Shown here: in pieces, positions 2,838 through 54,642 of the stretch | Numbering within the stretch: the first letter of the stretch is position 1 | Layout of the letters: every line of letters starts with the position of its first letter | DNA from: Octopus vulgaris | Taxonomy: Eukaryota | DNA: 64,000 bases | NCBI GenBank assembly: GCA_951406725.2 | Contig: OX597833.1 | Location: 22,010,001 to 22,074,000 of the forward strand | Direction of reading: 5' to 3' | Made by a program: the position numbers and the translations under genes | Notes under the pieces: generated by a model | Told to the model about the DNA's origin: nothing | The model's database searches: none | Seen by the model: only the letters and a program-made list of their open reading frames with translations

Positions 2838-2937
2838 ATATCCCAGGTGATGGATCAACATCTCCATACATTGAGTATTCTATCTCTGATGACAGAATAC
2901 CCAGTGTATGGAAATGTTGGCTGATTGCCTGGAATAT
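2838..2937. repeat. Imperfect ~45-bp-arm hairpin containing a decayed hammerhead-like core
   Basis: ccaggtgatggatcaacatctccatacattgagtattct pairs imperfectly with agaatacccagtgtatggaaatgttggctgattgcctgg; CTGATGA at 2886 and GAAA at 2911. Confidence 0.6.
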
Positions 2938-3216
2938 TCCAGGAACAGCTATATATATATAGTTAGAATCTGTAATACAAGATGCACATGTGAGAAAAAA
3001 TGTGCTTAATTAAATGAGGAAACTTGCACCTTAATAATACTCATCCCGTCCTAATTACCCAATGAAACTAACCAATCCACCACAAGCAAACCTTTACCCA
3101 GCGAATTTACCAGTGCAAGAACAAAATTTCAATGTAAGAATTACCACTTTGTTTACATTACCATCACATATGTATCAATCATTTTCGCATCCTAATCGAT
3201 GCATCTATCTATACTC

Positions 3217-3252
3217 GCATTCTGAAGAGTAAATTGAAACGATTGTAAATGC
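3217..3252 (+). ncRNA. Minimal type I hammerhead ribozyme motif
   Basis: gcatt-CTGAAGA-gtaaatt-GAAA-cgattg-TA-aatgc: perfect 5-bp stem I, intact core, near-palindromic stem III (ACGATTGT), GUA triplet; stem II is very weak. Confidence 0.7.
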
Positions 3253-3770
3253 CACCCTCATCTCTGCTTCTAACATTTTCTTACCTATTTAATTAAAGAC
3301 ATGCCAGCATAAACCATGAGTCTCCTATTGTTATTATATCCATTTTCTTCTCTTATATATATATATATATATATAATTGTTTTCATAATGAGATAAAAAA
3401 ACCAAGGCTGTGTAGATTTTAGAACATATAAATATTTCTAGGATATTTATTGTATCCCTTCATTGGAGACGGTGTGAGAAAATGGTTAAGCAATAGTTAA
3501 TTTAGATAAGATACAAAATAGAGAGTGTGGAAGAGATTTGTCCAAGGTGCTGTGCAGTGGGACTGAACCGGAAACCTCATGGTTGCAAAGTAAGCTTCTT
3601 AAACATGCAGCCATGTCTGTGTCTATGCAAAAGAAAACTACAAAAGCAGTTGTTGAACAAAAGACAATTTGGTTGGACGAGAGAAAAGTTAGTTGGCAAA
3701 GAGTAAAAGATGTGCGTGTGTGTGTGTGTGCATACATATATATATATACACACACATACATATATGTATG

Positions 3771-3772
<2 letters not shown>

Positions 3773-3848
<76 letters not shown>
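3773..3848. repeat. (TA)n microsatellite, representative of many in the window
   Basis: Direct reading of the sequence. Confidence 0.95.
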
Positions 3849-3851
<3 letters not shown>

Positions 3852-4006
3852 AAGACTATTGAAAAGGTTGCAAGACGCAACGAAAATTTTAAGAAAATAA
3901 AATAAGAAATAAGTGGAAATTTTACTGGTGAATGTGTTACATTATAAGGCACGAAAAGAAAATGACTCTCCCCAGACACAACAGAATATATACACACACA
4001 CACACA

Positions 4007-4070
<64 letters not shown>

Positions 4071-5023
4071 AACAAATATATAAATATATATATATATATA
4101 TATTTACATATACTAGATAAGAACTGATAAATTAAATTTGATATATGTAAACATATTTAAATATATTTTAATCTTGGTTTGAAATTGTTTCTGAGTCATA
4201 GAAACACTTTCTCTCTCTCTCTCTCATAACCAAAGGAATGAGAGAGAGAGGGTAAGAGAGAGAGATAGAGAGAGAGAGTAAATGAGTGCATTTAGAAATT
4301 ATGTTAAGCCAAGGTGTAAATGAAGTCTTACACACTGAGTTTATATAACCACTATATTATATTGATATAAATCAAACATTGGTAAACTGCAACCCATGGA
4401 AATTTCCGAATGATACGTCAGACGAAAAATTGCCTTGAAATTTTTTTCTTTTAGTAATGAGGCCTGTTTGATGGTGAGCCAGGTCTCATGTAGCCTGTTT
4501 CTCATAAAACATTGCTAATTCCTGGAATTAAGCAACAGATTTATGGCTTGTTGATTCACCATCATCATCATTTTCATGTGCTTTTTTTCTATGCTGGCAT
4601 GGGTTGGAAAAGGCTTGATCTTCAGCTGGGTGCCCTTTCTGTCATTTTATATGCAAATCCATGAAGGAATGACACATAAAGGAATGACACCAATGTTCTA
4701 TAAAAGACATGCACACACATTCACTCTCTCTTTCTCTCTATCTTCCCCCCCTCTCTCTCACACACACACACACAAACATGTATATATTGGGTTGTCAGAT
4801 AAATTCATTTGATTTTTTGTTTATTATTTTCCATTTCTTTTAATCATTTCGAATGTTATTTGAATTAATAGAAAGATATTTTTATCGGAGATGTACTTGC
4901 ATAGAAAGTGATTTGATCTCAGATCGTGTGCTGAAACGAAAACAATTGCAGCGTGGAAGGTGTTTGTAAGCCATTTAAGAAACACACAAAAGCCGTTAGA
5001 TTCACTTCAACATTTAAGTTTAA

Positions 5024-5074
5024 TTTGTCAAAATATTTTCGTAGCTTTAAGACCGCGACCTGTTCACTGACAAA
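5024..5074 (-). ncRNA. Type I hammerhead ribozyme, G3-C8 core variant (left arm)
   Basis: Minus strand reads tttgtca-GTGAACA-g-gtcgc-ggtcttaaa-gctac-GAAA-atat-TT-tgacaaa: 7-bp stem I, palindromic stem III AATATT. Confidence 0.65.
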
Positions 5075-5099
5075 ATCTCACGGAGATGCAGCATGGATT

Positions 5100-5150
5100 T
5101 TTGTCAGTGAACAGGTCACGGTCTTATAGCAACGAAAATATTTTGACAAA
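5100..5150 (+). ncRNA. Type I hammerhead ribozyme, G3-C8 core variant (right arm)
   Basis: tttgtca-GTGAACA-g-gtcac-ggtcttata-gcaac-GAAA-atat-TT-tgacaaa; stem II is partly decayed. Confidence 0.6.
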
Positions 5151-5449
5151 TTAAACTTAAATGTTGAAGCGAATTGAACAGATTTTGTGTGTTTCTTAAA
5201 TGGCTTACAAACACCTTCCATGCTGCAATTGATATTTTTATCATAGTGTTTTATGTTTTTTTAAAACTTTTCTAGCTCTATTCTTCTAACTTTCATTTAT
5301 CATTTCTAAATTTGAAAAGAACTTTTCCTCTTTTTACCCATATGACGAGGGAGTGCCGAGAAGAAAAATAAATAAAATGAAAAAAAAAATTATCTGTCAA
5401 CCCAAAACAGTGTTTTCTCAACCATTTTTCGTGAATTCATACCCCAGGG

Positions 5450-5870
5450 CCAGACCATGAATTGAGAATTCTACTGCAATGTTTTGAAGCATTTGAGAGA
5501 GACCATTTAGCAAAAGTGACCAGATTTGTGGAGCATGAAGAATTAGATTTTTCACGACAAAAATGCACCCTGTCACAAAGTTCTCCTTACTTATGAGTTT
5601 CTCACCAAAAACAACATGGTATTGCTTCCATACCCACCCTATTCACCAGATTTAGCATCTGCAAACTTCCACCTCTTCCCAAAATAAAAATGCAGCTCAA
5701 AGGTGGCTGTTTTAATACCATTGTCAAGATCCAGAGTGAATCGCAGAACGTCCTCAACTTGCTCACCGAAAACGACTTCCAGGCTGGATTCCAAAAGTGG
5801 CAGGAATGCTTACTGCACAAGGTGACTGTTTCCAAGGAGACAATGTTAAAACTTAAGTAAATAAAATTAT
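5450..5870 (+). pseudogene. Mariner transposase C-terminal remnant
   Basis: Manual translation gives FHDKNAPCH...EFLTKNNMVLLPYPPYSPDLASANFHLFPK (HDNA and YSPDLAP motifs) followed by a stop or frameshift. Confidence 0.85.
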
Positions 5871-5902
5871 TTTTTTGTAAATATAACTAGTATAACTAAT
5901 AT

Positions 5903-6278
5903 AGGCTTGTTTACCAACCACATGGCTCCAGGTTCAGTCCCACTGTGTGGCACCTTGGGCAAGTGTCTTCTACTATAGCCTCGGGCCGACCAAAGCCTTG
6001 TGAGTGGATTTGGTAGACGGAAACTGAAAGAAGCCTGTTGTATATATGTATATATATATATGCGTGTGTGTGTTTGTGTGTCTGTGTTTGTCCCCCTAGC
6101 ATTGCTTGACAACCAATGCTGTGTGTTTATATCCCCGTTACTTAGCGGTTTGGCAAAAGACACCGATAGAATAAGTACTGGGATTACAAAAGAATAAGTC
6201 CCGGGGTCGAGTTGCTCGATTAAAGGCGGTGCTCCAGCATGGCCACAGTCAAATGACTGAAACAAGTAAAAGAGAGAG
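5903..6278 (+). mobile_element. SINE family A copy (5' truncated)
   Basis: Matches 1110-1550 and 31205-31600. Confidence 0.9.
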
Positions 6279-7969
6279 TCCAGGAACCTTTTGATACCAT
6301 CTTGTGTTTCTGTTTTTACACTCTGCTGTGAAACCTGGGCTATTTTTTCATGCACCACTCTGTATAAGTTGAAATAATGAAATCAAACTAAATAGTGGTA
6401 TTAGCTTAACATGAAATATATATACATGTGTGCATGTGTGTGTGTGTGTGTGCATGTGTGTCTTTGTCTTTTTTTGGTGCTCACTACCAGTGTGGGTTTG
6501 TTTACATCCACCTTAACTAAAGCAATTCAAAGAAAAGAGACCAGTAGAATAAGTAACAGACTTAAAAAAAATAATAATAATCCTTTCTACTGAAGGCACA
6601 AGGCCTAAAACATGGTGCAGAGGGCACTGGTCGATTAAAATAATAATAATAATAATAACTATTGGTGTCAATTTGTTCAGCTAAAACCCTTCATGATGAT
6701 GTCCCAGCATGGCCACAGTGCAATGACCAAAAGTAGTAAATGATAAAAGATATCTCCTACCAATTTGATTAATAAGAATGGAGATAATGATTGTTGTTGA
6801 TTTTAATATTTTTCTTTTTTTAGTTTTGGCTTTCTTAGGCACAAATCCAATTTCCTTGTAAGAGGAGAGAAGAAACATCAACAGAGAGATTATTACATTG
6901 GTCCCACCATACTTCAGCATTAGTTGCTATTTTACTGATCCATAGAATCATGAAGGACAAACTTGATCTTGGCAGAACTGGAATTCAGAAACAGCGAGGA
7001 TGAAACTAAATACGAATACAGTAAAGCTTGTTTTTTTTTGTTTTTTTGCTCGCTTGTTTATTTTCTTTTAGATTGGCACTCAACCATACCTGCCATACCC
7101 TCTTCCGCCTTCCATTAGTCTAAGAATGATGATTTCTCACGTTGGCACCCAGCCACGCATTTTGGCAGATGAGTTTAGTCGATTTAATTAATTCCAGTAT
7201 CAGACTGACACTCGTTCTATTAATCCCAGAAAGATGAACAACAAACGTTGACACCCGACCAACCAAGGTTTGAACCCTGAAATCTTAGATATGCAACTAA
7301 ATACTGAAATGGTATTTAGTCTTGTGGTACTCTTCCATCTTTGTCTCCTCCCCGCTGTCTTCCACTTCCCCCAGTTATTAAACTGAGGTAATGAGGGAGC
7401 CTCTATGTGCTCACTCATCTTGCTAGAAATAGCAGTCAGATATTCGATAAATTCATACCATTGCATTTCAGACAAGAAAAGAGAGATGGTGAGTTGGCAG
7501 AATTGTTACAGCATCACACAAAATGCTTTGTCAAATTTTGCCTGTCTTTATGTCCTGACTTCAAATCCAGCTGAGATTGATGACTTAGTCTTTCATCTTT
7601 TCATGGTTTATAAAATAAGTACCAGTTGAGCACTGGGGATCAATCTAATCAACTAGTCTCTGCTCTTCGTAATTCTAGGTCTTATGCGAATAAGTAAGGT
7701 GTTGCACTCATGATCATAAGATTGTGGTTTCAATTCCTGGATTGGGTGGTGTATTGTGTTCTTGAGCAAAACACTTCCTCTCATGTTACTCTGTGATTAC
7801 TTCAACACCTGACAAGTGGTACACCGTGCACCTGTTCAGACGAATCCAATTTGACAGAGAGAGCGAGGTAATGTGCTGTGCATATATTTGATCACTATAA
7901 ACAAATTATTTGTGCAGGTTATTGAGTCCATTATTATTTGTGCAGGGAGAGTCCATTATCATTATTATT

Positions 7970-8183
7970 AAGGTGGTGAGCTGGTTGAATCGTTAGCATG
8001 CCGGGCAAAATGCTCAGCAATATTTCGCTTGTCACAAAATTCTGAGTTCAAATTCTGCCAAGGTCGACTTTGCCTTTCATTCTTTCAGGGTCGATAAATT
8101 AAGTACCAGTGAAACACTGGGATCAGTGTAATCAACTAGTCCCTTCCCCAAACATTTCAGGCCTTGTGCCTACAGCAGAAAGG

Positions 8184-8186
<3 letters not shown>
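7970..8186 (+). mobile_element. tRNA-derived SINE, family B (head AAGGCGGCGAGCTGGCAGAA; core GTCGACTTTGCCTTTCATCCTTTCGGGGTCGATAAATTAAGTACCAG)
   Basis: B-box GAGTTCAAATTC; more than 12 copies in the window; this subtype ends in (ATT)n. Confidence 0.85.
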
Positions 8187-8225
<39 letters not shown>

Positions 8226-8686
8226 GAGTGAGAGAGCAGTTCATGCCATCAAAGTGACACTGGGGTAAATTATACGAAGCCCAATATACCCATCATGACT
8301 ACCCGTCTGATAAAGGTACACCAGGCACATGCATCACAACCATATGTGTGCGATATGGTGATCTCATATCAAGATAAACAGCACATGACCTTGCAGGTGG
8401 GGCCCAGTTAGAATTTTCTTCAGGTTGAGTAGCCCATCCCGCTCAAAAGGTCCCTGAGTAAGGGTTGTTTAAGGATGTTGAAAGAACCACCCCTGTTTCC
8501 AGAGGTGAATTATTCAAACCCCAAATAATCCCTCTCAACACATGGCTATGATGCTCCCCCACTACTTCTGCTCATGATCAGAGATGCACATATCGTCAGC
8601 CACTAAGGGACATGCTCAACTGGTTAAGGTCAAACAACTGACAAGCAAATCTGTGGTATTGAGCAGAATATTTGCTGTAGCCCATC

Positions 8687-8690
<4 letters not shown>
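8226..8690 (-). mobile_element. ~465-bp non-coding interspersed element embedded in a (TTA)n tract
   Basis: GC-richer block flanked on both sides by (TTA)n; no TIRs and no credible ORF. Strand inferred from an (AAT)n tail. Confidence 0.45.
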
Positions 8691-8731
<41 letters not shown>

Positions 8732-9725
8732 CATTATCATCATTATTATTATTATCATTATTGTTTTATTTTCATTCTTTGCTTCAGTCATGTATTCATT
8801 GGTATATCTATTCATTCATTTATTTACCAATTTATTTGACCCTTCTTTTTCTCTTCCTCCCAAGGATCCAATTTCTCCCCTTTCTTCTTCTCTCACACCA
8901 ATTCTACCAATCAATTTTCCTCCCTTTTCTCTTTTTCTCACTCACCTTCCCCATCTCTCTCTCTCTTCCTTTTCCCTCTCTATAGATATTCTACTCCTTC
9001 TAGCCATGTCCTCCCCTCATCTAGTAGGTCACAGAAACTGCCCTGACCGTATATAAAGGGTGAATACCATCAATTTGTCCATGTTTTGATTGTCTTAACC
9101 GAGGAAAATTTTGTGTAAGAGATGAAATTCCCTTTTCATTTATTGCACAATTATCCAAAATGTGCATGTTAAAATGCATTTAGAATATCAGTTCTTGGTT
9201 TGACTTTGGTTTTATAGGTAAAGCATGGCTGTGTGGTAAGAAGCTTGCTTCCCAACCACATAGTTCCAGGTTCAGTCCCATTGTGTGGAACCATGGGGCA
9301 AGTGCCTTCTACTATAGCCTCAGGATAACCAAAGCCTTGTGAGTGGATTTGATAGATGGAAACTGTAAGAAGCCTGTTACGCCAGCTAAGCTAAGTTGTA
9401 CTGTCTATAGTCGTAAGACACCCGCTGTTTTTGTCCTGTTATTACTATTATTGTTTTTTGTATTTATATTCGTGTGGCATCGTCCGTTTTTCTGTCCTCG
9501 TTTCGTATACATTCGATCCTTTTTCCAAGAAATCTAATGCTCGTAGCTTAGTTTTTCCTTGGGGCTGGTCGGATCGGAGCGATCTCAAGATTAATCAGCC
9601 GAAATTGCGAGGATGATCCGGTACTTGACTGAAGATTGAAGGCTTCGAATGTCCCGTCTGTGTTTTTTGTATCGTCTTCTAAATGTTTTGCGTTCTTGTC
9701 CCAGTTTGTATTTTTTTACATATAC

Positions 9726-9763
<38 letters not shown>

Positions 9764-9904
9764 GCACACACACACATACATACATAAATTTACATAAATA
9801 AGGATAAGATCGATATTTAAATTCCAATCTTATCAGGTGGCCAGCATGGGAATAAAAACCTTTCAAAGGTAATAATTATTTAAAATTATAATTTAGGGTA
9901 TCCA

Positions 9905-10024
9905 AGAGATACCACCACGCTGAAAATAGCAGTCATAACTTGATTCTAAAACCACATTAAATGTTCATTTAATGTGGTTTTAGAGTCAAGTTATGACTGC
10001 TATTTCCAGCGTGGTGGTATCTCT
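9905..10024. repeat. 120-bp near-perfect palindrome (59-bp arms, TT spacer)
   Basis: agagataccaccacgctgaaaatagcagtc...aaatg TT cattt...gactgctatttccagcgtggtggtatctct; two mismatches. Confidence 0.95.
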
Positions 10025-10079
10025 CATATATGTACATATTTATGTATCTGTATTTGTTCCCCCACCACCATCACTTGAC

Positions 10080-10137
<58 letters not shown>

Positions 10138-10563
10138 TAGACAGACAGGCAGGCAGACAGACACATGTACAAACATAAGTATACAATAGGCTTTCAGTTT
10201 CTGCCAAACTAATCCACAGTAAAAGACACTTAGCCAAGGTACCACACAATGCTAATGAACTTTTTGACCATGCCACCACAAATTTAACTCCCCTCTGTAT
10301 TTGTTTTTAAATTATCCTAAAGTTTGGTGTATATTTCTTATCTTTGTTCTCTATTCAAAGTATTATTGCACTCATTCATTAGTTAAAGTTTGTAGTCTTT
10401 CTGAAATTACATGATCTTACATTAAAAGCATTCTTAATCTAAACTATAAACAATATTTGATACTCTGAATTCTTATAGACAAATAAACATGACTTTTACT
10501 CTGTCTATGTTTCAAGAATTATTTTTCAAATTGCACTTGTGTTTTTATTCTGTTTCATTCCAG

Positions 10564-10607
10564 ATGTCAAAAGTCACTCCTCAACAATATTGACTACACA
10601 GAGCAGG
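10564..10607 (+). CDS. Candidate internal coding exon ([E]CQKSLLNNIDYTEQ[G])
   Basis: Acceptor tttttattctgtttcattccag; donor GG|gtataa (weaker); joins in frame to 282-340. Protein not recognised. Confidence 0.3.
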
Positions 10608-10655
10608 GTATAAGAGAACTTAGTTATTGTCATTTAGAAACCTTTACACTTATTT

Positions 10656-10854
10656 AAGGCGATGAGCTGGCAGAAACATTAGCACGCCGGGTGAAATGCT
10701 TAGCGGTATTTCGTCTGCCGTTATGTTCTGGGTTCAAATTCCGCCGAGGTCGACTTTGCCTTTCATCCTTTCAGGGTCGATAAATTAAGTACCAGTTATG
10801 CACTGGGGTCGATGTAATCGACTTAATCCCTTTGTCTGTCCTTGTTTGTCCCCT
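10656..10854 (+). mobile_element. SINE family B copy
   Basis: Close to the family consensus seen at 47784-48015 and 50946-51172. Confidence 0.9.
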
Positions 10855-11124
10855 AAATAAGAAGAGGTGACCAATCAAAACTAAAATGTAATGGATTCCA
10901 GTTTTTAATGATGAGTATTAAGTTATTTGATCAACTGCTGACTGAATTAGCATATAAGTGGCTGAATATTCCACAGACATATGTACCCTTAACCCTTACT
11001 GCACAGAAACTGAGTATACTTGCTCTCTTACATGTGTACTTGAGACACAAGAATGGAGCTAATTTAAATTTCGTAGTTAATTTGTGTTAAAGATAGAAAG
11101 TTAAGATAACCACTGTTTATACAT

Positions 11125-11568
11125 TTTGGCAGATTTGAACATAAATATCCAATTGTTGTTGTTTTTCATGATCAAATAACATTTCCTCATTTTAAACACT
11201 GTGCATTCATAATACGGATGTAAAGGGGGACTTTGAGATCCTGTAATGTTTTGACCTTATTGTATGTCTCCTCAGTCAAAGCTACCTCGTCAGGCTCTTG
11301 TTTATAGAAATCAACAAACAAATTATTTGTTGATGAGTGCTGATGTCTGCCAAACAATAATTAAGGAAATGCATACAGAACTGTGGGAATCCAAACAATA
11401 ATGTATCTATTCATTCTCAATATGTTCTGGCAGATTTGAAAGTTAATATCTGATTGTTCTCTTTAGAGGATACATGTACATAACACACATGGATCACAGG
11501 TAGAAGAGGACTTTGTGACACTGCAGTATTTCAACCTTATTTTGTGTCTCCTCTGAAAGCTATTCCTC
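11125..11568 (-). repeat. Degenerate ~280-300-bp tandem repeat (about 1.5 units), each unit with a decayed HHR
   Basis: ggcagatttgaa recurs at ~11128 and ~11429; ggactttg...ccttatt...gtctcctc...aaagcta recurs at ~11228 and ~11508. Confidence 0.6.
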
Positions 11569-12468
11569 TAAACCAGTGGTTTATCAACTGCGGTACATAA
11601 ATTTTGTTGTTAAAATTTATCTCCAATAAAGTGGTTATACTTCAACAATACACAAGATATTTTAACATCTTTTTTATACAATTCTCTCATTCTACTTGAT
11701 TTTGATAATTTTTAAAAATTGATATAACTCTTCATGAAGGTAAATGGACAATAAGAAGAGTGCAATGCAATTTATAATAGAGATTGTCTATTTGACAGTT
11801 TACTTGCTTTTACTTTTTTCAATCATTTGACTGAGGCCATGCTGGAGCACCACCTTTTAGTCAAGCAAATCGACCCCCAGGACTTATTCTTTGTAAGCCT
11901 AGTACTTATTCTATCAGTCTTTTTTGCCGAACCACTAAGTTACAGGACATAAACACACAGGTGATGTCGGTTTTGGCATGGTTTTTACATCTGGGTGCCC
12001 TTCCAAATGCCAACCACTTCACAGTGTAGATTGGATGCTTTTTACATGGTACCTACACTGGCAGGGTCACCAAGTAACTTGCAAGATAAAGATCCTTTGA
12101 GAGGAAAGGGGACATGGGAGGAGGTGATCTTGTGTCAGATGATGAAAGGTTAGAGTGTGACAGAGAGACAAATTCTCCCCATTTCATATGATGTATTACA
12201 CATATTTTTACTGGCGAGTAGAAAGAGATCTCAAGAACTGATTTGCATATGATTAGCATGCTACATCACCACATTAATACACAAAACTTTTAATCGGTGC
12301 AGAGAGGATTAATACAGTTCTTAACAGGAATCAACATGACACATTGTAACAGAGCAGATTTTAACTCTTCAGCATTTAAACTGACAGATCTGGTCCAAAG
12401 ATACTACTTATTTTATGCTCAAACTGACTAGATACAGCCTCTGTCACCTACCCTGCAATTTTATTTTA

Positions 12469-13961
12469 TTGGGTTGTCCGGAAAGTTCATGCTGATTTTT
12501 AAGGGAAATTAAAAGAGAAAACAAAATTATGTCATTAAATATTTATTCGACTAAATATGAACCACTTCATTACACAACCTTTCTCTGTCTTTCCTTCAGC
12601 TTAAAGATTCTGTCTTCCCAGAATTTCAGTGGTTTCTTGGCAAAGAACTCATTAAGGTGGGTTATTTTTACCATTGAGACTATTTTGCAAGGACCTGAAT
12701 AAATGAAAATTCAAAGGAACAATGTCTGGTGAATATGGCAGGTGGGATAACACATCCCAGCTTAGCTGCAACAATTTTTGATGGGTCGCCAAAACGTGAG
12801 GTCTGGCATTATCCTGATGGAAAACAATACCTTCCTGTTTGCCAATTCTGGGGTTTTTCTTGAATTGTTGCCTTTAAATCATCCAGTTGTGAGCAGTAAT
12901 TATCAGAATTAATTGACTGGTTATTTGGCAGAAACTCATAGTACAGGATTCCTTTCCAATCCCACAAGATGCAGAGCATGACTTTCTTAGGCTGAAGACC
13001 AGCTTTTGGGGTGGCTAAAGGTGGCTCATGTCGCTTACCCCAGGATCTTTTTCACTGAACATTGCTGTAAACAATCCATTTCTTATCACCCATCACAACT
13101 TGCTTCAAAAAGGGTGCGTTTCCATTGCATTTATACAGCAAATCAAAGATAGAAATGTGATCCAAAATATTTTTTTCGCTCAGATCATGTGGTACCCAAA
13201 CACTGTGGCAGTTTGAGTACCCAAGCTTCACTAAGTGCTCATGAATGGTGGATTTCAATAAATTTAGTGTTTCTGCCAATTCCCACATTGTGTAATGTGG
13301 GTTATTCTATTTCTTTACTACCCACAAGGGGCTAAACACTGAGGGGACAAACAAGGACAGATAACCGGATTAAGTCGATTACATCAGCCTCAGTGAGTAA
13401 CTGGTACTTAATTTATCGACCCTGAAAGGATGAAAGGCAAAGTCGACCTCGGCAGAATTTGAACTCAGAGCGTAACGGCAGATGAAATACTGCTACACAT
13501 TTCGCCCAGCATGCTAATGTTTCTGCCAGCTCGCCGTCTTAATGTGGGTTATTCTCAATCAATGTCTTGAAGCAGTGGTGGTGGTGGTGGTGGGGTTTTG
13601 CCTGAGTGTTCTTCATCAATAAGGCTGCAATCACCAATTCTAAACTTAGTGAACCACTTCTGTACAGTTCTGTCAGCTAAAGCACCTTAACTATACACAG
13701 CTGGTTGCTTGCATGGCATTTTTGCCTTTAGGGTAATAAAAAAGGCATCAAGTGTCTAAAACGTACCTTATAATCTTCCATTTCCTTAGGGATGCAAAAT
13801 TGACTCAAATTAAGTAATTTTAAACTTTCTTTCTCAAGAGATAGCTTGAAGTGTGCAATAACTAGAAATGTAAGTATATTATGTGTTGATAAATTTGACA
13901 TGTTCTAACGTGTTGGAACATGAACAACTAAAAATCAGCATGAACATTCCGGACAATCCAA
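12469..13961 (-). mobile_element. Full-length decayed mariner transposon
   Basis: TA|TTGGGTTGTCCGGAAAGTTCATGCTGATTTTT ... AAAAATCAGCATGAACATTCCGGACAATCCAA|TA; ORF 13052-13288 contains WVPHDL and LKQVVMGDKKWIVY (mariner WVPHEL and TGDEKW motifs). Confidence 0.92.
13309..13539 (-). mobile_element. SINE family B inserted into the mariner, 16-bp TSD
   Basis: TAATGTGGGTTATTCT at 13293-13308 and 13540-13555. Confidence 0.92.
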
Positions 13962-22621: not shown

Positions 22622-24150
22622 TAGAGTGGCCCTTAGCAATAGGTAATTTTCCGAAAGTTAAAATTTTGCTGCTCCCACCCCCTAATCCTGTTCCAATAAA
22701 CAAAACAGCAGGATGTGCAAGATTTCAGCTTAATCAGACAACTGCTAGGCAACCCTCAAACACCTTGAAGTTGGAACATAGTATATACAACGATTAATTC
22801 TGTTCAAAAGTGGTATACTGTTCCCTTTCTTGACCACTTTCTTTTTTTCTTCTTAGAGAAATTTATGTGGACACATCCAGGCAACCCTAACAGCTTAGAA
22901 AATTCCTATTTTTAAAATCTTACAATGTGAGATATTCATCAACAGTACTTTGGATGTTGAAAGGTCTTTGCTGAGAAAATTGGTGCCAACAGAAAATCTC
23001 GTGAAGAAAGTTTTTGTACCAGGAGTTACAAAAGACGAAAACTCAATGTTTGTAAAGGAAGAAAAGTCATTTTGGTGCAGAATGTACCTCTTCAGTTCAT
23101 CTTTCTTTTCTTTCTCTTCTTCACCTGTGTCTTCTTGAGCAATATTTACCTTCACCTGTGTTGGAACATTATCAAATATGGATAGAACCACAGTTTCGGG
23201 AGCTGAGTACCAGAGATGGTTGGAAAATTTCTTTGCAGCAGCCTTACTGATATCTGGATCAATATCCTGATAATTTATCAGTTGGCACATGAATAGGAAA
23301 TTATGATAAGGTGCTTTAATTACTTCTGATGACAGAAGTAATTACACTTGAGCAAGAAAAATACATATTCTTCTTAAAGAGTGCTTTTCCCTTGGAAATA
23401 ACTGAAATTGATCTTGAAACAGATATATCTTGAATGCACAAATTGCTTTTGACATCCACTTAGCATGACTTACAGCTCCTGGTGTACGAAACAATATCCT
23501 GTTCTTCAGAATGCTGCCAAGAAAGACCATCATTAACTCCAACAATTCTTGGTAATCATTTCGTTATTGTTTCTGCATAGAGAGGTGGTATTCAAGAAAT
23601 CCAAGAATGGTAAAATGGACATCATCAGACACTTCATTGCTACCAGTAATGTAAACCCTCTTGTTAAGATTTATCCAGAAATCTTTTGAAAAACGCTATG
23701 TCTGGACCAGAAGTTGCACCCATCAGTGAGTCAAAACAGCTCCTAAAAACCATCTCAAAAATACAATGACAGCAAGGGAAGTACAACAGGTCATGATTGA
23801 ACAATTTTTCTAGATTTGTACAAGCACCATTTACTCGACGTGTGCTGCTTGATGTCGTATCACAGCAAAGTGCCTGAATTTTGTTGGTTATACCCCTCTT
23901 CTCCACTGCTTGGTAAACACCCATAGCTTGCTGTTCTCCTGAAGATGTTGGAATTTCAGGGACTCCCAACAATTGCTCCTTGCCTTGAAAAGTTACTATT
24001 ATTGCCAGTCTATCAACCTTTTCAATGCCTGTGAGTGCTGGGAGCAGCTTTCCATCCCAGTGCAACACTAATTCTTGACAGCCGTTTAGGTTAAATTTGT
24101 GTTGTATTTCTTTGTGTCTCGCTTCTCTAAATATTGTTCTAAGGCATTGA
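22622..24150 (-). pseudogene. Decayed DNA transposase, hAT-related (hATm-like, HWDGK type), with one terminus at ~22622
   Basis: Collinear broken ORFs: LHWDGKLLPALTG..VDRLAIIV..EQLLGVP..CCDTTSS..GAC..LLYFPCCH; ELLEL..FLG..PGAVSHAKWMSK; NHLWY. Terminus TAGAGTGGCCC lies next to a TA tract. Subgroup assignment is from memory of the motifs. Confidence 0.8.
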
Positions 24151-24419
24151 AAATAAGTATACAAAGCACATGGCATTATAAAAATGGAGAGGTTGTAAAC
24201 ATGGTAATACAACTTTGTCAGGGCTACCAACACAACAGGGGAAGATCTATGTCATAATGCTCTGCAACAAAATGAATGAATGCTTACAAGTAATTACAAA
24301 TAAATTAACTTGTATCAAACTCTTTTGCCAAACCACTAAGTTACAGGGATGTAAACACACCAATGCTGGTTGTCAAGCAATAGTGGGGGGCAAACGAAGA
24401 CACACAAATGCATACATAC

Positions 24420-25052: not shown

Positions 25053-26019
25053 ATGTATATATTATCATCATCATCATTGTTTGATGTCTGCTTTCCATGC
25101 TGGCATGGTTGGACGGTTTGACTGAGGACTGGTGAGCCAGAGGCAGCACCAAGCTTAATCTGATCTGGCAAAGTTTCTACACCTGGATGCCCTTCCTAAC
25201 GCCAACCACTGCGAGAATGTAGTGGGTACCATAATGGAAGGCACTTGCCAAGGTACCACACAGTGGGACCAAACCTGAAACCAGATAGTTGAGGAGCAAA
25301 CTTCTTACCACACAGCTATGCTTGCATCTATTTAAAAAAAACAAAAACAAAATTTTAAAAAAACCCCAAAAAAACACAAATATGGAACACTTCATGAATC
25401 TGCGTGTCATCCTTGCACAGGAAATAAAAAAAAAACAAGAAAGAGGAGAAAATAAGAAAAAGAACTGCACTGCCATCACCTCCGCCCCAACCCTCACACA
25501 CCAATATTTCTTGTAACATTTTGTCAACTACTTGACTTATTTTGGATGCAAACATTCTGTATATATTTTAAATTTCATGTGAAAGAAGAAAGCAATTTAA
25601 TTATGAAACCCTATATAGGAAAAGTCAGATTAAATGTTGTGTTTGTAATTAATTATGTAACTTTTTGATACTCTCTCAGCTGAAAAGATGATGTAAGAAT
25701 GTCAGCATAGCTTAATAAAAATAGAAGCCAGACCTCCTGAGAGAGAAAAGCAATTCTGATCTTTGGTTTCCATCTGAGATCACTCCTCCTCCTTCTCCCC
25801 CTCCTCTCTCTCCTCCAGCCTCACTTCACCCCACCATCACTCCACTGTCTCACCGTTTCACCCTCCACCCTGTTATTTGTGTGTGTGTCAGCCTCATAAT
25901 TCTTTTTTAAACTGTTTTAACATCTGTATCTTCTTCTTCTTCCTCTTCTTCTCCATACGTTTAGCATGCATAAGGCTGGTTGACGGAGTGGTGGTTTTTC
26001 GACTTACCAAGAAAGAAAA

Positions 26020-38283: not shown

Positions 38284-38502
38284 CATACATATATATGTAT
38301 ACATGTGTATATATATATATGTACATTCACACACACATGTATGCATGCGTATATATGTATGTATGTATATACATATATATATAAAATAATAATAATAATG
38401 ATAATAATAATAATAATGATTAATAATAGGGAGTATAAATTCAAACTTACAGGGAAAAATTCAATTTAGTATTAAATCAAATTTCACGATATAAATATAT
38501 AT

Positions 38503-40286
38503 ATATAAATTAGAGAAAAACCACTAATATGCAATTCAAACAATGATAGACATAAATCATACCATATAGAAAAAATATAATATACGATAAAACATTTACC
38601 TAGATCACAATAAAGTACATAATAATAAATAAACAGTATATAATTAGTAAATAGACTATGTATGCTTTGTGGCTATATCTTCAATTCGAATTACAATTAA
38701 ATTTAAATTTAATCGATCCAAAAACAATTCAATTTGAAAATAGAGTCACTCCTCAGGTCAACAATAATAACAATAATAGTTAAATACATATTTTTAATAA
38801 ATAACCAAACAGAATTAAACAATATTTCTTAAAGAAGTAAAAACATGATTCTTCTTGTAGAAGAAATTCTATTAACTAAATTTTTAACTTAAAAAGTAGG
38901 ACCAAGTGTTTATAATAAATTTATCACGTTAAAAACCTAATGTAAAAAAAAAATAGAATAAATAGATAGAAATATGTATTTTATCTGTGAAGATATATTT
39001 TAGCTTTGAGAATAATCTAAAGTAAATATAGTATATCGTTACTGGAAAAATATAAGAGTCCAATTAATTAAAATAAAAATACTTAAGATACATCATATAT
39101 TTAATTTAAGCTAAATTACTATAATTTAATTTATATTCATTAGTTAATTAAATTATATATTTATTTATTAATTAAATAAACATCTAATTTGATATGATTC
39201 TAACTATGTACTAAACCCTATACAAACATGTGTAGACTTATAATATGTAATATGTTCTATATCAACAACGCTGCAGCCACAACTCTGTAATAGTATTTTG
39301 TATATATTTCAAAAATATACTCACAAATAATTTAAACTTATATAAGTAAATTAATTTATGTCTAGAACTAATATTTCGCTCATTGATTGAATAAACAAAG
39401 TAATTATTATTATTATTAAATTCAATAGTATATAAAGAAAAAAAAACTTTTCACTACCCATACTATAATATTTTGCATTACAAACTATTTCGCAAAACAA
39501 CCACAAATAATACTTTTAGATTTTAGTTCACATATAATAATTATAATAATAAGAATAATTAAATAAATGTATCTTAAATTATAATTAACAAATAAAAAAA
39601 TTAGAAATACATATTTTTTCCATCAATAAACATATAAATTTCACCATTATTTCTTAAATAAAATGTATACTTATTTTTTTGAAGATATTTTATGAACTAG
39701 AAATTTTAAATTAAAAACGTATAACTTAGTGTTTATATGTCAAGATCTAATATTTCGCTTATTGAGGGAATAACGAAAGTACTTATTATTATTAAATTCA
39801 ATAGTACAAACAAATAAAAAACTTTTCACTACCTATACTATAATATTTTATGTTACAAACTATTTCACAAAGAAACCACACTTAATGCTTTTAGATTTTA
39901 GTTCACATATAATAATTATAATAAAAAGAATAATTAAATAAATGTATGTGCCTAAATTATAATTAACAAATAAAAAAAATTAGAAATCCATATTTTTTCA
40001 ATTAATAAGCATATAAATTACACCATTATTTCTTAAATAAATTGTATGCTTATCTTTCCGAAGATATTTATGAACTAAAAATTTCAAAACTAAAAACTTG
40101 TTACTTAGCGTTTAAAAATTTACTCTCAAAACTAAAAACTTGTTACTTAGCGTTTAAAAATTTACTCATGAAAAAAGTACTTATTATTATTATTAAATTC
40201 AATATTACAAAAAAAATTAAAACTTTTCACAACCTGTCTATCATTGTTTGAATTGCATAATAGTGGTTTTTCTCTAATTTATATAT
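38503..40286. mobile_element. Very AT-rich 1.8-kb element with ~50-bp inverted ends, a decayed HHR and an internal ~379-bp tandem repeat
   Basis: aaattagagaaaaaccactaatatgcaattcaaacaatgatagac / gtctatcattgtttgaattgcataatagtggtttttctctaattt; repeat units start at ~39368 and ~39747; 42-bp duplication at 40084-40167. Confidence 0.75.
38654..38759 (-). ncRNA. Decayed type I hammerhead motif with long stem II
   Basis: Minus strand reads gac-CTGAGGA-gtgactcta...tatagccac-AAAG-cataca-TA-gtc; the GAAA box is mutated. Confidence 0.45.
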
Positions 40287-40297
40287 AAATCGTTTAG

Positions 40298-40650
40298 TCA
40301 TCATCATCGTTTAGCGTCTGCTTTCCATGCTAGCATGGGTTGGATGGTTCAACTGGGGTCTGGGAAGCTCGAAGGCTGTACCAGGCCAGTCAGATCTGGC
40401 GGTGTTTCTACAGCTGGATGCCCTTCCGAAAGCCAACCACTCCGTGAGTGTAGTGGGTGCTTTTTACGTGCCACCGGCACAGGTGCCAGACGGGTCTGGC
40501 AAACGGCCACGATCGGATGGTGCTTTTTATGTGCCACCGGCATGGGGGCCAGGTGAGGCTGGCAACGGCCACGATCGGATGGTGCCTTTTACGTGCCACC
40601 GGCACGAGGCCAGTCGGGGCGGCGCTGGCAACGGCCATGTTCGGACAGTT
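40298..40650 (-). mobile_element. SINE family D with (GAT)n tail and internal ~60-bp repeats
   Basis: Related copies at 25065-25230, 42020-42215, 43612-43925, 45330-45600 and 48037-48320. Confidence 0.85.
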
Positions 40651-42493: not shown

Positions 42494-43438
42494 ATGTCTT
42501 TGTGTCTGTGTTTGGTCCCACTACTTGACAACTAGTGTTGGTCTGTTTACATCCCTGTAACTTGGCAGTTCGGCAAAACAGACCAATAGAATAAGTTCCA
42601 AACTTAAGAAAAAAAAATCTTTAATGACTGAGGTTGATTTGTTTAACTAAAAACCCCTTTAAGGCAGTGCTCCAGCATGACCACACCCCATTGGCTGAAA
42701 CAAGTAAAAAGACAAAAAGATAAAAAACTTTTCTTGTCACATTCACTAAACACTGAATAAATAAATAAAAATACAAAGAAACAAATAAATAGCCATAATT
42801 GAAAGCAATAACTCAAGGGAGTTGTTATTAAATCATATATTTTCCCACGACAAAACCTCAATAAATTTATTATGTATTATTAGATTAGGATTCAGAAAGA
42901 AAGCTGAATGTATTATTAAATTAAGAACTGAGAAAGGGGAGTGAATGTAAAATGAAAAGAAAACAAAACTCTATATTTTATTATACGTCTCAGTATTCTG
43001 CTTGTCCAAAGTCTAATAATGTAGTTGTTCCTCTGTAAAGTGTTTATCCAAAACAAAGGACATTGTCGTAAGAGGTCATTTATCTCTGGAAGCTTTCTTC
43101 TGCTCAGTAACCAATCTCCTTACATCAAACTGGTAGAGTTGCCATCGTAAATAGCAGAGATCACCTGACCATCAAGTTGAGTCATGTGACTGAGATGATG
43201 GTAGTTTCGTCATGCCCAGAGATCATCAGTAAAAGTGATATGTCCTCAAGTGGTTATGATAATCAGGACACATATGCTAAATTTCAAGGTCTTTCTCTCT
43301 AATGTATAATGGAATCAAACTTTTACCGTTGTCATCTATCACTACTGCCTCAAAATACATTTTTGGTGTAATAAACCAATTCTTTCAAGTATGTGCAGTG
43401 GTAGCTGGTGAAATCATGAAGTTGAATTCTTAGGGTAA

Positions 43439-43477: not shown

Positions 43478-43955
43478 CATTGAAAAATACCTTAGGAATG
43501 AGAACCCAGGTTTGAAATTTCCCCCAAAACACCTGATGAAGGCTGGAGGGTATATCAGCCGAAACGTGTTAACAACAAACAAGATGAGGACAAATATCCG
43601 TCAAATGTAAATCATCATCATCATCGTTTAGCGTCCGCTTTCCATGCTGGCATGGGTTGGATGGTGCAACTGGGGTCTGGGAAGCCAGAAGGCTGCACCA
43701 GGCCCAGTCTGATCTGGCAATGTTTCTACGGCTGGATGCCTTTCCTAACGCCAACCACTCCGTGAGTGTAGTGGGTGCTTTTTACGTGCTACCGGCACAG
43801 GTGCCAGACGAGGCTGGCAAACGGACACGGTCGGATGGTGCTTTTTACGTGCCACCGGTACGGAGGCCAGGCGAGGCTGGCAAACGGCCACGAGTCGGAT
43901 GGTGCTTTTTACGTGCCACCAGCACAAATGTAAATAAGGAACAACTTTGGTAACC
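43475..43955 (+). mobile_element. Penelope-like pLTR fragment with hammerhead motif after (AAT)n, interrupted by SINE-D (TSD caaatgtaaat)
   Basis: aacac-CTGATGA-a-ggctg-gagggtatat-cagcc-GAAAC-gtgtt at ~43528-43570; second copy at ~44825-44982; short inverted piece at ~44701-44731. Confidence 0.65.
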
Positions 43956-46209: not shown

Positions 46210-46756
46210 CACAATGGGCCTCTTTCAGTTTCTGTCTACCAAATCCACTCACAGGGTTATAGTAGAAGACACTTGCCCAAGGTCCCATGCAGTGGGATTG
46301 AACCCAGAACCATGTGGTTGGTAAGCAAGCTACTAAATCCACTCACAAAGCGTTGGTCAACCCAAAGCTATAATAGTAGATGGAAACTGAAAGAAGCCCA
46401 TTGTATGTATATACATATATCATCCTCATCATCATTTAACATCTGCTTTCCATGCTAGCATATGTATATATATATATATATATATATATTTAAAAATTGA
46501 GGGAGATAAATTAATATTAATTTTAATATCAATTTAAAACCAGTAGTCCAGCATTCAAAAAATCTGAGGAGTCAGAGAAAATTCAAATATATGTGTATAT
46601 TGGCAGGGCTGGCCTGCTAGGTAGCGGCCAGAATGCTAGAAATAGATCATAAACGATCAAACTACAAGGGAAATTCTCTAGAGGAAGAATTCAGCGAACA
46701 CCAGAACCGAATTTGGCGGGCAGGACATATGAAAAATTAAATAAAAAACAGACTTA

Positions 46757-46832
46757 AATGCATACCTCGGTTTCGGTCTTAACAAAAGAATTACTTGCAT
46801 AATTCAAGTGTCCGTGACTTCTTCAGCACATT
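46757..46832 (-). ncRNA. Type I hammerhead motif (left arm of palindrome)
   Basis: Mirror copy of 47027-47102. Confidence 0.65.
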
Positions 46833-47026
46833 CGGTCCTCGAGATGCAAACCGCAAGACTAACCCCAGCTCTCTGTGTCAAGACAGACACGTGCTTAGTC
46901 TTACTGATTACATCGGGAATAAAATTTCTTGAAATTTTATTCCCGATGTAATCAGTAAGACTAAGCACGTGTCTGTCTTGACACAGAGAGCTGGGGTTAG
47001 TCTTGCGGTTTGCATCTCGAGGACCG

Positions 47027-47102
47027 AATGTGCTGAAGAAGTCACGGACACTTGAATTATGCAAGTAATTCTTTTGTTAAGACCGAAACCGAGGTATGCA
47101 TT
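47027..47102 (+). ncRNA. Type I hammerhead motif (right arm of palindrome)
   Basis: aatgtg-CTGAAGA-agtc-(37 nt)-gacc-GAAA-ccgagg-TA-tgcatt: stem I 6 bp with two G.U pairs, quasi-palindromic stem III, GUA triplet. Confidence 0.65.
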
Positions 47103-47259
47103 TAAGTCTGTTTTTTATTTAATTTTTCATATGTCCTGCCCGCCAAATTCGGTTCTGGTGTTCGCTGAATTCTTCCTCTAGAGAATTTCCCTTGTAGTTT
47201 GATCGTTTATGATCTATTTCTAGCATTCTGGCCGGCTACCTAGCAGACCAGCCCTGCCA

Positions 47260-47315
<56 letters not shown>

Positions 47316-51172: not shown

Positions 51173-53096
51173 ATAAATATATATATATATATATATAGAC
51201 ATATATGCTATATAGTCATACAGACATACAAGGGTGGCAAGCCAGCTCAATCATTAGCACATTGGGAAAAATGCTTAGAGACATTTCATTTGTCTTTACA
51301 TTCTGAGTTCAAATGCTGCCAAGATTGACTTTGCCCTTCAAACTTTCAGGATTGATAAAAAAGTAGCAAGCTGACTTTATCCCTTCCCTGAACTTGCCGG
51401 TCTAGTGTCAAGATTTGATATCCATCCATCCATCCATCCGTCCGTCCGTCCATCCGTCCATCCATCCATCCATCCATACATACATACATACATACATACA
51501 CAAGACTTTTCTCAAGTTCCAGATGTGAATTTGCCTATGTTAGCTACATCCCCAAGACAGAGCCTTGTATCTTTATTGGAAACCAGTTCCCTCCTCAGTG
51601 GAAGATTTATAATAATTAAAAAATAGAAAAGGTATGCATACATAAGCACACAAACAATATATTCATACCTGCATAGAAATAAAATGATGAAGACAGAGAG
51701 CATTTTACAAAGCATAGAGGGAAGAGTTAAGTAACCTTCATATATTTCAGGCAGTTATGGCGATTGGCCTAGTGGTTCGGGTGTTGCACTCACGATTGCA
51801 AGATTGTGGTTTCAATTCCTGGACTGGTTGGTGTGTTGTGTTTTTGAGCAAAACACTTCATCTCATGTTGATCTGTGATCACTTCGACACCTGAAGTGTG
51901 ACATAGCATGCACCTTTTCAAGCAACATTGATTTGATGGCTGGAGGGAGTGAACTAAAGTTTAGCACATACATCTAATTACTGTAACGAAATCATTTGTG
52001 GAAGTTTGGACAGCAAGAACTTGCAGACCCATCTTTCTCAGACTATGAGAGACTACCATCATATATTTCAGGCACAAAAGTCCATCATCAGAAGTGAATG
52101 GATTAAAGAAATGTAAGTTTACATAAATATGGCCCCGTTGGGCATTGTATGGTAGTGACTCCAATTTGTCCCTTTAGGGGTCGTGGTGGCAATGGGTGAA
52201 TGCAACAGCTGCAATGGTGCTACCAGTGCTTATAAAGGTCATTGATATAGTTATTTCTACTTAAATATAAATACACACGTCCAAACATACATGCAATAGT
52301 CATACAAAATTAACACATGGTTACAGTTATATGAACAGGTATGGCTGGGTGGTTAAGACATTTACTGTGCAAGCCATGGTTCTTGGTTCAATCCTACTGT
52401 GAGGCACCTCTTGGACAAGTGTCCTCTTCTGTAGCCTCAGGCTAACCGAAGCATTGTGAGTGGATTTGGTGGACAGAAACTGAAAGCAGCCAGTAGTATG
52501 TGTGCATGTGTGTGTGTACGTATGTATGTGCATGCATATGTGTATGTGCACATGTGTGTGTGCATATGTGTGTGTCTGTACGTTAGTCTCTTTCTTTGTT
52601 TTGATAATATATGTTGGTTGTATGTGAGCTTTACTGTCATACAAGTGATGTTGTTTGTTTCCAGTTTCCTGAGTAAAGCTTATTTAGCCATTGGGAAATA
52701 TTATCTTGCTTTGAAACAGGTGAGAGTTGATGGCAGGAAGAATGTCTGGCTGTAGAAAATCTGCTTCATCAAATTTTGCAAGCATGATGATGAAAGATGA
52801 TGATGATGATGAAGAGGGTAATTTTTATGTGTGTGTGTGTGTGTATGTGAGAGAGAGAGAGAAAAGGTTGAGTTCTATTTCATCTTTTACTTTGTTGGGG
52901 TTCCAAAGGTTGATTTCTAAAAAAATTCTTCATATTTCAATGGTAGCATACTGTTGTAAGAATTGTGAATATGAAAATGCTACGAGTATAAGGTGTGTTA
53001 TGAGAATTTATAGAACAAACATCCTATAGAAAACTCAACAAACAATTAAAGATAGAGAAGAGAAGGTGTTAAAAGTTTGAAAAGAATTTAATCCAT

Positions 53097-53207
53097 GCAT
53101 ACGATCGTTTGGAACAGCAATATTAACATGTAAATAACATGGTAGAAAAATTAGAAATCAGTTTAATTATAATTAAATTAATTACATATTACTGTCCTCC
53201 TCAGTGC
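53097..53207 (-). ncRNA. Hammerhead motif, left arm, with GAAA>CAAA (G12) lesion
   Basis: Minus strand reads gca-CTGAGGA-ggacagtaatat...atattgctgttc-CAAA-cgatcg-TA-tgc. Confidence 0.65.
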
Positions 53208-53974
53208 GAAAAAAGAATACATCAAAAAATAATATTATTATTGTCACAGAAGACCTGACAGAGTAAGTGTCACAAAAACACTTCATTATCATCGAACAGT
53301 TTTTTTCAATATTCTTAGCCACAGCAAGTAATTTCTTTCTGAATTCTGTAATATTAACAACAATTCTTTTATATTTATTTCTTTATCTTATTTCACACAA
53401 ATGAATATATGCTTTTTCACAAAAGTTTTTTTTCCCAATATATTAAGCTATTAATTACTCCCTCACAACTCCATATACTTTTCGTTTATAATTCAAGTAG
53501 CTTAAATAAAACTATTTTAACTATTTCCTATATTTTAATCTCGAACAAGAAATTTTTTAAAAATAATTTCTTTAAATATACACCATACTTAATATTTCTT
53601 ATATACCACTTATATAACTGTCAAATCAAATATTAATTTGAATATAGCTATGCTGTCCCATTGGATGCTTATATATATATATATATATTATATTTTTATT
53701 CCCCTTATGATAAATATTTTATATGGAGTGTATATTACTTAATTACTTATTATTATATAGAGGGAATATTTCTTAAACATCTTTCACTTATATTTTAAAA
53801 TAACTGTTTGCCGCATCAGTTTTAGTTCATACACAACTAGACTCAACAACTCTATCTTAGCATGCTCCTATCTTTCATAAGGATAATATATATATCCAAA
53901 TATGTAATGTGACACTCGTTCCATCAAGTCTTCTGTAACAATAATAATATTATTTTTTGATGTATTCTTTTTTC

Positions 53975-54085
53975 GCACTGAGGAGAACAGTAATATGTAA
54001 TTAATTTAATTATAATTAAATTGATTTCTAATTTTTCTACCATGTTATTTACATGTTAATATTGCTGTTCGAAACGATCGTATGC
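53975..54085 (+). ncRNA. Intact type I hammerhead ribozyme with extended stem II
   Basis: gca-CTGAGGA-gaacagtaatat-(~62 nt)-atattgctgttc-GAAA-cgatcg-TA-tgc: 12-bp stem II, palindromic stem III ACGATCGT, GUA triplet. Confidence 0.82.
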
Positions 54086-54226
54086 ATGGATTAAATTCTT
54101 TTCAAACTTTTAACACCTTCTCTTCTCCATCTTTAACAGTTTGTTGAGTTTCTATAGCATGTTTGTTCTATAAATTCTCATAACACACCTTATATATATG
54201 TATACCTCCCATCTCTCATTAACCAA

Positions 54227-54257
<31 letters not shown>

Positions 54258-54642
54258 ATATTTGCTATTAAACAACAACAAATCCCAAACTAAGATGTAC
54301 CCAATTAGAAAACTTATACATATCACAAATAAATTCTTTAATAAACCTTTACTCTACTCCCAGCATTAAAAAAAAAACATCAAAATTTTAGAAAAACAGA
54401 GACTAGAACTATCAATAATGTGCAAAGAAAAATTGTACAAAGACAACAGAGAATGAAGAAAAACACACCACATGAAATAGGGCTTCCCTCTTCAGCTGCT
54501 AATCAGATATTTGTTTTGGTTTTAAAACCTTGGGCAGTACTACTCTATCTGATGGTGTCAGCAGTGCTAAAAATAAATAGTTTTAATGCTGCTCGGGAAT
54601 ACACACAGATACACACACACACATGTATACATAGAAGCACAC

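Follow-up and report, generated by a model that had tools for sequence, protein, structure and literature searches.

An inverted-arm copy of a common repeat in Octopus vulgaris DNA with one intact and one G12-mutant hammerhead motif

Results

Organization of the element

The element, ~1.3 kb in length, belongs to a common repeat and has two mirror-image arms around an AT-rich interior, each arm containing a hammerhead motif. It is likely a derivative, 5′-truncated or non-autonomous, of a Penelope-like element (PLE) within a high-copy repeat family, in which an inverted hammerhead end was added at insertion; G12 of the left motif would have decayed and the right motif would act only as a dimer. 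The window (the whole 64-kb stretch of Octopus vulgaris DNA that was analysed, 64,000 nucleotides) is AT-rich animal DNA, dense in microsatellites and short interspersed repeats. The main parts of the locus are as follows.

52865–52986 (−): extension beyond the left arm; tail-like family sequence of 122 nt or more, without a right-arm counterpart
52987–53274 (−): left arm; inverted copy of a pLTR-like terminal module
53275–53907 (+): interior; 23% GC, a repeated part of the family that other copies hold in line with the right arm
53908–54194 (+): right arm; pLTR-like terminal module that closes with a short (TA)n run

The inverted arms that had been proposed from the sequence alone are borne out at exactly 52987–53274 and 53908–54194, with 94.8% identity over 288 columns and 15 differences. 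The element bounds given in that sequence-only reading hold for the arms but not on the left, where family sequence reaches at least 52865. The arm differences are crowded, with seven of the 15 in the inner 30 nt, at 53917–53937 and all transitions (Fisher p=0.0002), such that the inner 30 nt are 77% alike as against 97% for the remainder. TATAA is present at both arm ends, at a TA-rich site. The interior starts at the inversion junction near 53275–53300, and there are neither direct repeats within the element nor, short AT-rich words apart, other copies detected by blastn within the 64-kb window. Elsewhere in the window, the region 38400–40300 (21% GC) contains, by eye, a diverged ~370-nt direct repeat near 39350–39730 and 39730–40100, and a 43-nt tandem is visible in the vicinity of 40085–40170.

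The interior (53275–53907) contains no recognisable ORF. None of nine frames (six interior and three extension frames) has a Pfam match, a phmmer search of one rightward interior frame against 1.84 billion proteins gave no matches, three word-index protein searches also gave none, and the best Atlas score was 0.77; two + and two − interior frames were covered by Pfam or word-index search only. Of the 252 filtered open frames of the window, the 150 longest were compared with Pfam, and neither an RT nor a GIY-YIG domain was found. The interior is a long 3′ UTR or else represents the body of a non-autonomous family. Other coding traces in the window include a mariner-type transposase fragment at 12812–13051 (−; Pfam PF01359, E 5.5e-23), and open frames of 195 and 148 codons at 22895–24251 (−) that look like a decayed transposase-sized gene and have no Pfam match.

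Hammerhead motifs in the two arms

Each arm contains a motif of the same layout, facing outward on its own strand, and the right one is made up of the parts listed below.

53975–54085 (+): right type I hammerhead; intact core, predicted cut after 54082
53975–53977/54083–54085 (+): right stem I, 3 bp
53978–53984 (+): right 5′ core CUGAGGA
53985–53996/54059–54070 (+): right stem II, 12 bp, G10.1–C11.1 closing pair
53997–54058 (+): right loop II, 62 nt, AU-rich
54071–54074 (+): right GAAA
54074–54081 (+): right stem III palindrome, 8 nt
53097–53207 (−): left hammerhead motif; same layout, CAAA for GAAA (window G at 53111)

The right arm has the full core, C3-U4-G5-A6-N7-G8-A9 together with G12-A13-A14, and the left arm fails at G12. 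The cleavage-site triplet is GUA with A17 at 54082 (an NUH site), the required A15.1–U16.1 is present, and G10.1 directly follows A9, with no unpaired base between 9 and 10.1. Loop II contains a near-perfect palindromic hairpin of 28 nt (53999–54026) and a small second hairpin. The motif sits inside the terminal repeat, a Penelope-like feature, and the core starts of the two opposite-strand motifs are 774 bp apart.

The sequence-only reading had described a 12-bp stem II, a ~62-nt AT-rich insertion, a palindromic stem III and GUA in the right arm, all of which are present, as is the stem I that it put at about 3 bp. Its statement that the motif has every canonical feature is correct for the core and G10.1–C11.1, but it does not extend to the short stem I, to a stem III of only 2 bp in the monomer, or to the long loop II. 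The proposed GAAA-to-CAAA change at G12 of the left arm is confirmed, with C in the motif and G at 53111 of the window. However, the arms differ at three places in the hammerhead span (53986, 54021 and 54071), as the left motif also has G-U in place of one A-U pair of stem II and a further difference in the loop hairpin; the left arm is mutated at G12, as suggested for a natural inactive control, but it is not a clean single-change control.

The hammerhead descriptor was composed after the motif had been noticed, and its relaxed form was scanned over the window. It finds three core starts, and only the one in the right arm has a stem II of at least 8 bp or a palindromic stem III. Among 300 block-wise dinucleotide shuffles of the window, none has a stem II of at least 12 bp, none has a palindromic stem III, one has a stem II of at least 8 bp, and 38 have any relaxed match. 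The stem II domain has a z of −6.8 with bounds picked after the fact. Rfam reports no hammerhead among the 150 listed of 203 matches over the window (E up to 1), and four chance matches over 52800–54300 (E up to 10) do not include a hammerhead, presumably because of the 62-nt loop II. A two-part core pattern has no matches in prokaryote genomes or in viral contigs. Exact-pattern matches at four metagenome and 16 viral loci were rejected as chance, as only a pattern of 16–20 letters matched. A weak U6 snRNA-like match (33 bits, E 0.0002) at 25376–25426 (−) is under the family threshold.

Several other hammerhead-like motifs are present in the window. The region 46587–47273 is a near-perfect palindrome (98.8% over 688 columns) with a 2-nt centre and TA-rich ends, and each of its arms contains an outward type I hammerhead-like motif unrelated to that at 53975–54085, with CUGAAGA at 47033, GAAA at 47085, a ~45-nt stem II domain and an A-C mismatch as the closing pair. 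The palindrome has the architecture of the 52987–54194 element, is younger, has no sequence likeness to it, and may be a fold-back assembly artefact. A minimal hammerhead-like motif without stem III (a 5-bp stem I, CUGAUGA, an extra base and a 5-bp stem II) is located at 43527–43572 (+), directly after a (TAA)n run, and resembles the short motif of Poseidon/Neptune pLTRs. A further CUGAUGA...GAAAC match, to the core pattern alone, is at 43174–43229 (−).

The repeat family and the state of G12

The repeat occurs in high copy in organisms A, C and E. Contigs of four of 24 public runs were aligned to 52865–54590 at 80% likeness: X1 (899 contigs) and X3 (19) from organism A, X6 (767) from organism C, and X13 (339) from organism E; that X3 is an RNA run is a guess only, and it has no A-to-G excess (A>G 7, T>C 11, C>T 12, G>A 9). 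Most family contigs, including 659 of the 899 in X1, are less than 95% alike to the locus. Locus-like contigs have a depth of ~28 (X1) and 7 (X6), and the matching arm bins sum to 7,000–12,900 and 1,700–2,800; by inference from these contig depths, which are not copy numbers, the family would comprise hundreds of copies. The locus itself is represented in organisms A (53301–53590, 1 difference) and C (53301–53582, 4 differences), whereas contigs of organism E do not cover the right flank.

The GAAA state at 53111 accounts for a depth of 239 of 576 in X1 (6 contigs), 79 of 108 in X6 (8 contigs) and 4.7 of 9.4 in X13 (1 contig), the remainder not being broken down in any of the three. No row against the G at 54071 is among the best-supported 40 of 289 differences, despite the high coverage of this region. 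The family state is therefore G12, and it is the left arm that has decayed, likely through neutral loss. G12 is the general base, and a G12A change is described as slowing cleavage 100,000-fold or more (PMC2553840).

The 5′ core is the point at which summed depth steps up, from 2,671 to 11,230 in X1 and from 563 to 2,169 in X6 (~4-fold), and from 134 to 354 in X13 (2.6-fold), and no other part of the family is as widely shared as the core. At least 13, 9 and 4 contigs (X1, X6 and X13) keep the core but diverge upstream of 53975 into sequence that is shared but different, and these carry T at 53974, a potential fourth stem I pair. At least 12, 15 and 5 contigs leave the window sequence at 54011 in loop II and retain the second half of its palindromic hairpin. 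The pattern fits subfamilies that would keep the core and change its surroundings; stem variation between the arms is a single one-sided A-U/G-U change.

These findings bear on whether the hammerhead likeness arose by chance in an AT-rich inverted repeat, with the right-arm G as the mutation. The absence of an Rfam match and the post hoc descriptor speak for such an origin, but it is highly improbable given that none of the 300 shuffles reproduces the motif, that GAAA is the family state and that the core is shared more widely than any other part.

Ends and the one-sided extension

Family sequence continues beyond the left arm. In X1 the depth over 52865–52980 is 953–1785, whereas that of the right flank is ~23. 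A mismatch at 52984, as far as 49 letters inside the contig ends, is present in 29, 23 and 16 contigs (X1, X6 and X13), and the pieces 52921–53134, 52963–53093 and 52967–53097 span 52987; therefore 52987 is not the end of the family. At the right end, X1 depth drops from 4366 to 41 past 54198. A (GT)n/(GA)n microsatellite is situated just beyond 52865, the edge of the aligned stretch, and both ends abut simple repeats. Neither candidate left end has a target-site duplication exceeding 5 AT-rich letters; in PLE insertions, microsatellite targets often mask such duplications.

The extension contains a candidate start codon (52949–52947, −) in a frame that stops after ten codons. The frame neighbouring this start is open to the end, and four X1 contigs have one extra base there, so that on sequence grounds the extension may hold the broken start of an ORF; the frame has no protein match.

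The inversion junction

The join between left arm and interior is rare in the family. Depth at 53213–53270 is 81, 8 and 0 (X1, X6 and X13) versus 2590, 555 and 134 in the corresponding bin of the right arm. In two X3 contigs, likeness to the interior begins at 53302 and 53312, after 129 and 170 unrelated bases. Other left-to-right joins include 53063>54109 and 53154>53819 (X1), 53063>54090 and 53063>54120 (X6), and 52900>54049 (X13); these variable joins form five of the eight rows of the junction table, with joints read at 80% likeness. Three of the five resume 8–38 nt past the cut site, a number too small and positions too loose for use. Interior pieces are joined in order to one another and to the right arm (e.g. 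53361>53735 and 53596>53975, among 15 of 68 joints listed). From the ordered joints and variable junctions it follows that the interior and right arm are one 5′-truncated + strand unit, and the left arm is, as far as these joints indicate, an inverted copy added at a variable point. The X3 contigs 53194–53535 and 53702–53944 are locus-like, with 2 differences each, and the former crosses the left junction; the inversion is therefore real and not an assembly artefact, which has no bearing on transcription.

The junctions and ends also bear on two other classes of mobile element. A foldback or MITE-like DNA transposon with long TIRs could have captured a hammerhead module and later lost the outer at least 122 nt of its right repeat by deletion. 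The 288-bp arms around an AT-rich non-coding interior would suit this origin, as would TATAA at both arm ends with a TA-rich site, the colinear interior of other copies, and the failure to find a retroelement protein. It is nonetheless unlikely, as the junction of left arm and interior is nearly absent elsewhere, the junctions vary (52900>54049 lies even outside the arm), and family sequence runs past the supposed TA end in 29, 23 and 16 contigs of the three organisms. A reading as a TA-flanked Tc1/mariner element was dropped on the family contig evidence.

Alternatively, the repeat could be a retrozyme or SINE-like non-coding RNA with an efficient hammerhead, processed or circularised and using RT in trans, and the locus an inverted double insertion. 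The repeat is non-coding, AT-rich and of high copy, its type I motif has a palindromic stem III, and a relationship of animal retrozymes to PLEs has been described (PMC7229834; bioRxiv 10.64898/2026.07.22.740005). However, described retrozymes are head-to-tail tandems of 170–400 nt (PMC7229834), whereas the unit here is longer than 1 kb and inverted; no go-back joint is among the 15 of 68 joints listed, and the element lacks direct repeats. A retrozyme-like origin is accordingly improbable.

Predicted folding and activity

The right motif had been proposed as the best candidate for an active ribozyme in the window. It is the best-formed motif there, but the proposal is weakened by the predicted folding. 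Stem II is predicted with pair probabilities of 0.95–0.99; stem I has 0.79–0.88 in a trimmed 119-nt piece but 0.0 with 50 nt of flank, and monomer stem III does not exceed 0.04. The palindrome at 54074–54081 has a predicted trans duplex of −10.0 kcal/mol, and a double-hammerhead dimer is predicted at −58.4 kcal/mol versus −49.6 for two monomers. At −61.8, the most stable dimer departs from the active fold: its cores are misfolded, and the loop II palindrome joins them. When the locus is read through as one RNA, pairing with the other arm is predicted to take up 109 of the 111 motif bases (−487 kcal/mol).

If the intact right motif cuts at all, it is thus predicted to do so only as a two-molecule double hammerhead, and read-through of the whole locus is predicted to bury it in a 288-bp hairpin. 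The arms are on opposite strands and therefore cannot serve each other as partners. With one sense motif per strand and arms that pair with one another, the locus is therefore predicted to be most likely silent. Lunse et al. have reportedly found PLE hammerheads that cleave as dimers. A Schistosoma PLE motif is described as uncut as a monomer and weakly cut as a dimer or trimer (PMC4209133), and an Anolis PLE motif as requiring the protein of the element and as dispensable for insertion in vitro, with no read ending at the site (PMC11167929).

Origin of the element

By analogy with described insertions, the locus likely resembles a Penelope-like insertion with a one-sided 3′ extension, its membership being putative as RT and endonuclease were not found. 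The inverted-pLTR-like nature first proposed agrees with the one-sided extension, the variable junctions, the (TA)n end and the palindromic stem III, but not with the failure to find RT and GIY-YIG. Published PLE insertions have an inverted 5′-truncated copy, carry their tail on one side and target microsatellites (PMC8557442, PMC3846280), opposite-strand hammerhead pairs 100–700 bp apart are reported in Schistosoma and a palindromic helix III in metazoan PLE motifs (PMC4209133), and the PLE tail is reported to fall between two RT start sites (PMC11167929).

On this model, taken from the PLE literature, a PLE RT and GIY-YIG endonuclease would copy the RNA from two internal starts, one at 54194 and the other at or beyond 52865. 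Insertion would be into an AT-rich or microsatellite target and would give a head-to-head pair with both motifs facing outward. In a master element the hammerhead would be kept by selection, the core being the most widely shared part, and would work as a dimer through the 8-nt palindrome, either in tandem transcripts or in trans.

Several observations run against parts of this model, among them the lack of a target-site duplication longer than 5 letters, the absence of the unpaired base between 9 and 10.1 and the inactive fold of the lowest-energy dimer. A canonical PLE should have its endonuclease end no more than 680 nt upstream of the motif, and none was detected; the extension of at least 122 nt far exceeds the described tail of 30–40 bp; and a single clean copying event does not agree with the seven of 15 arm differences in the inner 30 nt. 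The arms also share states unlike the family majority at 53020/54161, 53159/54023 and 54116. Both the clustering of differences and the shared states could be explained by a subfamily master combined with a template switch, or else by gene conversion at a later time.

The gene conversion version, in which the outer 258 bp of an older insertion, or of two adjacent insertions, were homogenised from arm to arm, is compatible with a PLE origin, and the likeness of the arms would then date the conversion and not the insertion. It draws on the contrast between the inner 30 nt and the rest of the arms, on the shared non-majority states, and on the divergence of most family contigs from the locus copy (less than 95% alike). 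However, the sharing would follow just as readily from a subfamily master that carries those states, and arm-to-arm conversion seems improbable. The preferred reading remains a PLE derivative with an inverted end added at insertion.

Significance of the locus and family

The locus itself is of little weight, being most likely one decayed copy among hundreds. The family shows high-copy hammerheads, as predicted motifs, with an 86-nt stem II domain; it escapes both Rfam and short-loop descriptors, and ribozyme counts in such genomes are therefore too low. If the locus is transcribed, the likelier cellular effect would be 288-bp double-stranded RNA. A doubtful extension of the model is that of an octopod-wide, non-autonomous Penelope-dependent family, with hundreds of copies, in which loop II has expanded to 62 nt and its palindromic hairpin docks two separate transcripts; these would then make up an active double hammerhead in trans, in place of the tandem arrangement that PLE hammerheads usually require. 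If it is true that the loop hairpin drives trans pairing, this would bear on how weak PLE hammerheads cut in cells.

In the O. vulgaris repeat annotation, PLEs are given as 6.83% of the genome in 190 families, and the word hammerhead is absent from the available text and supplement (PMC13282606). The titles and abstract starts listed for the octopus-hammerhead, Penelope-hammerhead and octopus-Penelope literature contain no account of the family; the supplements of PMC4209133 or the Lunse paper may hold long-loop cases, and relaxed long-loop hammerhead descriptors have been in prior use (PMC8557442).

Comparison with known systems

Of the known systems, described insertions of EN-positive PLEs (Penelope/Poseidon and Neptune; PMC3846280, PMC8557442) share with the locus head-to-head terminal modules, an extension at one end, an AT-rich or microsatellite target, a hammerhead in the terminal module and varying truncation points. 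The locus differs in that no RT-EN ORF or target-site duplication was detected, the extension is at least 122 nt versus 30–40, and more than 600 nt of AT-rich non-coding sequence is situated upstream of the motif.

The Anolis Poseidon element PAc has two RT start sites that would match the two 3′ ends of the locus past the hammerhead, and the candidate ORF start in the extension can be likened to that of PAc (PMC11167929). However, the PAc ORF is described as starting at stem II and its RT starts as 30–40 nt apart, whereas here the candidate start follows the cut site by 150 nt and lacks a protein match.

Animal non-LTR retrozymes (PMC7229834) are similarly non-coding and of high copy, with type I motifs and a weak palindromic helix III. 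They are described as short direct tandems, many families having canonical loop 1–loop 2 contacts, in contrast to the locus, which is long, inverted and lacks canonical helix sizes.

The motif itself is closest in form to the metazoan PLE hammerheads described by Cervera and de la Pena 2014 (PMC4209133), with which it shares type I topology, an intact core, G10.1–C11.1, a long helix II, a short helix I, and the palindromic 15.2–16.2 and loop 3. Opposite-strand pairs of motifs are also common to both, at 100–700 bp there and 774 bp between core starts here. Helix II has 12 bp and a 62-nt structured loop as against 6–8 bp in the published motifs, and the unpaired base between 9 and 10.1, reported as conserved in PLE hammerheads, is absent here, although canonical hammerheads do not need it. 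The layout is thus already known, and the modest new part is a long-loop variant that is missed by Rfam, with the structured loop II as its sole unusual feature.
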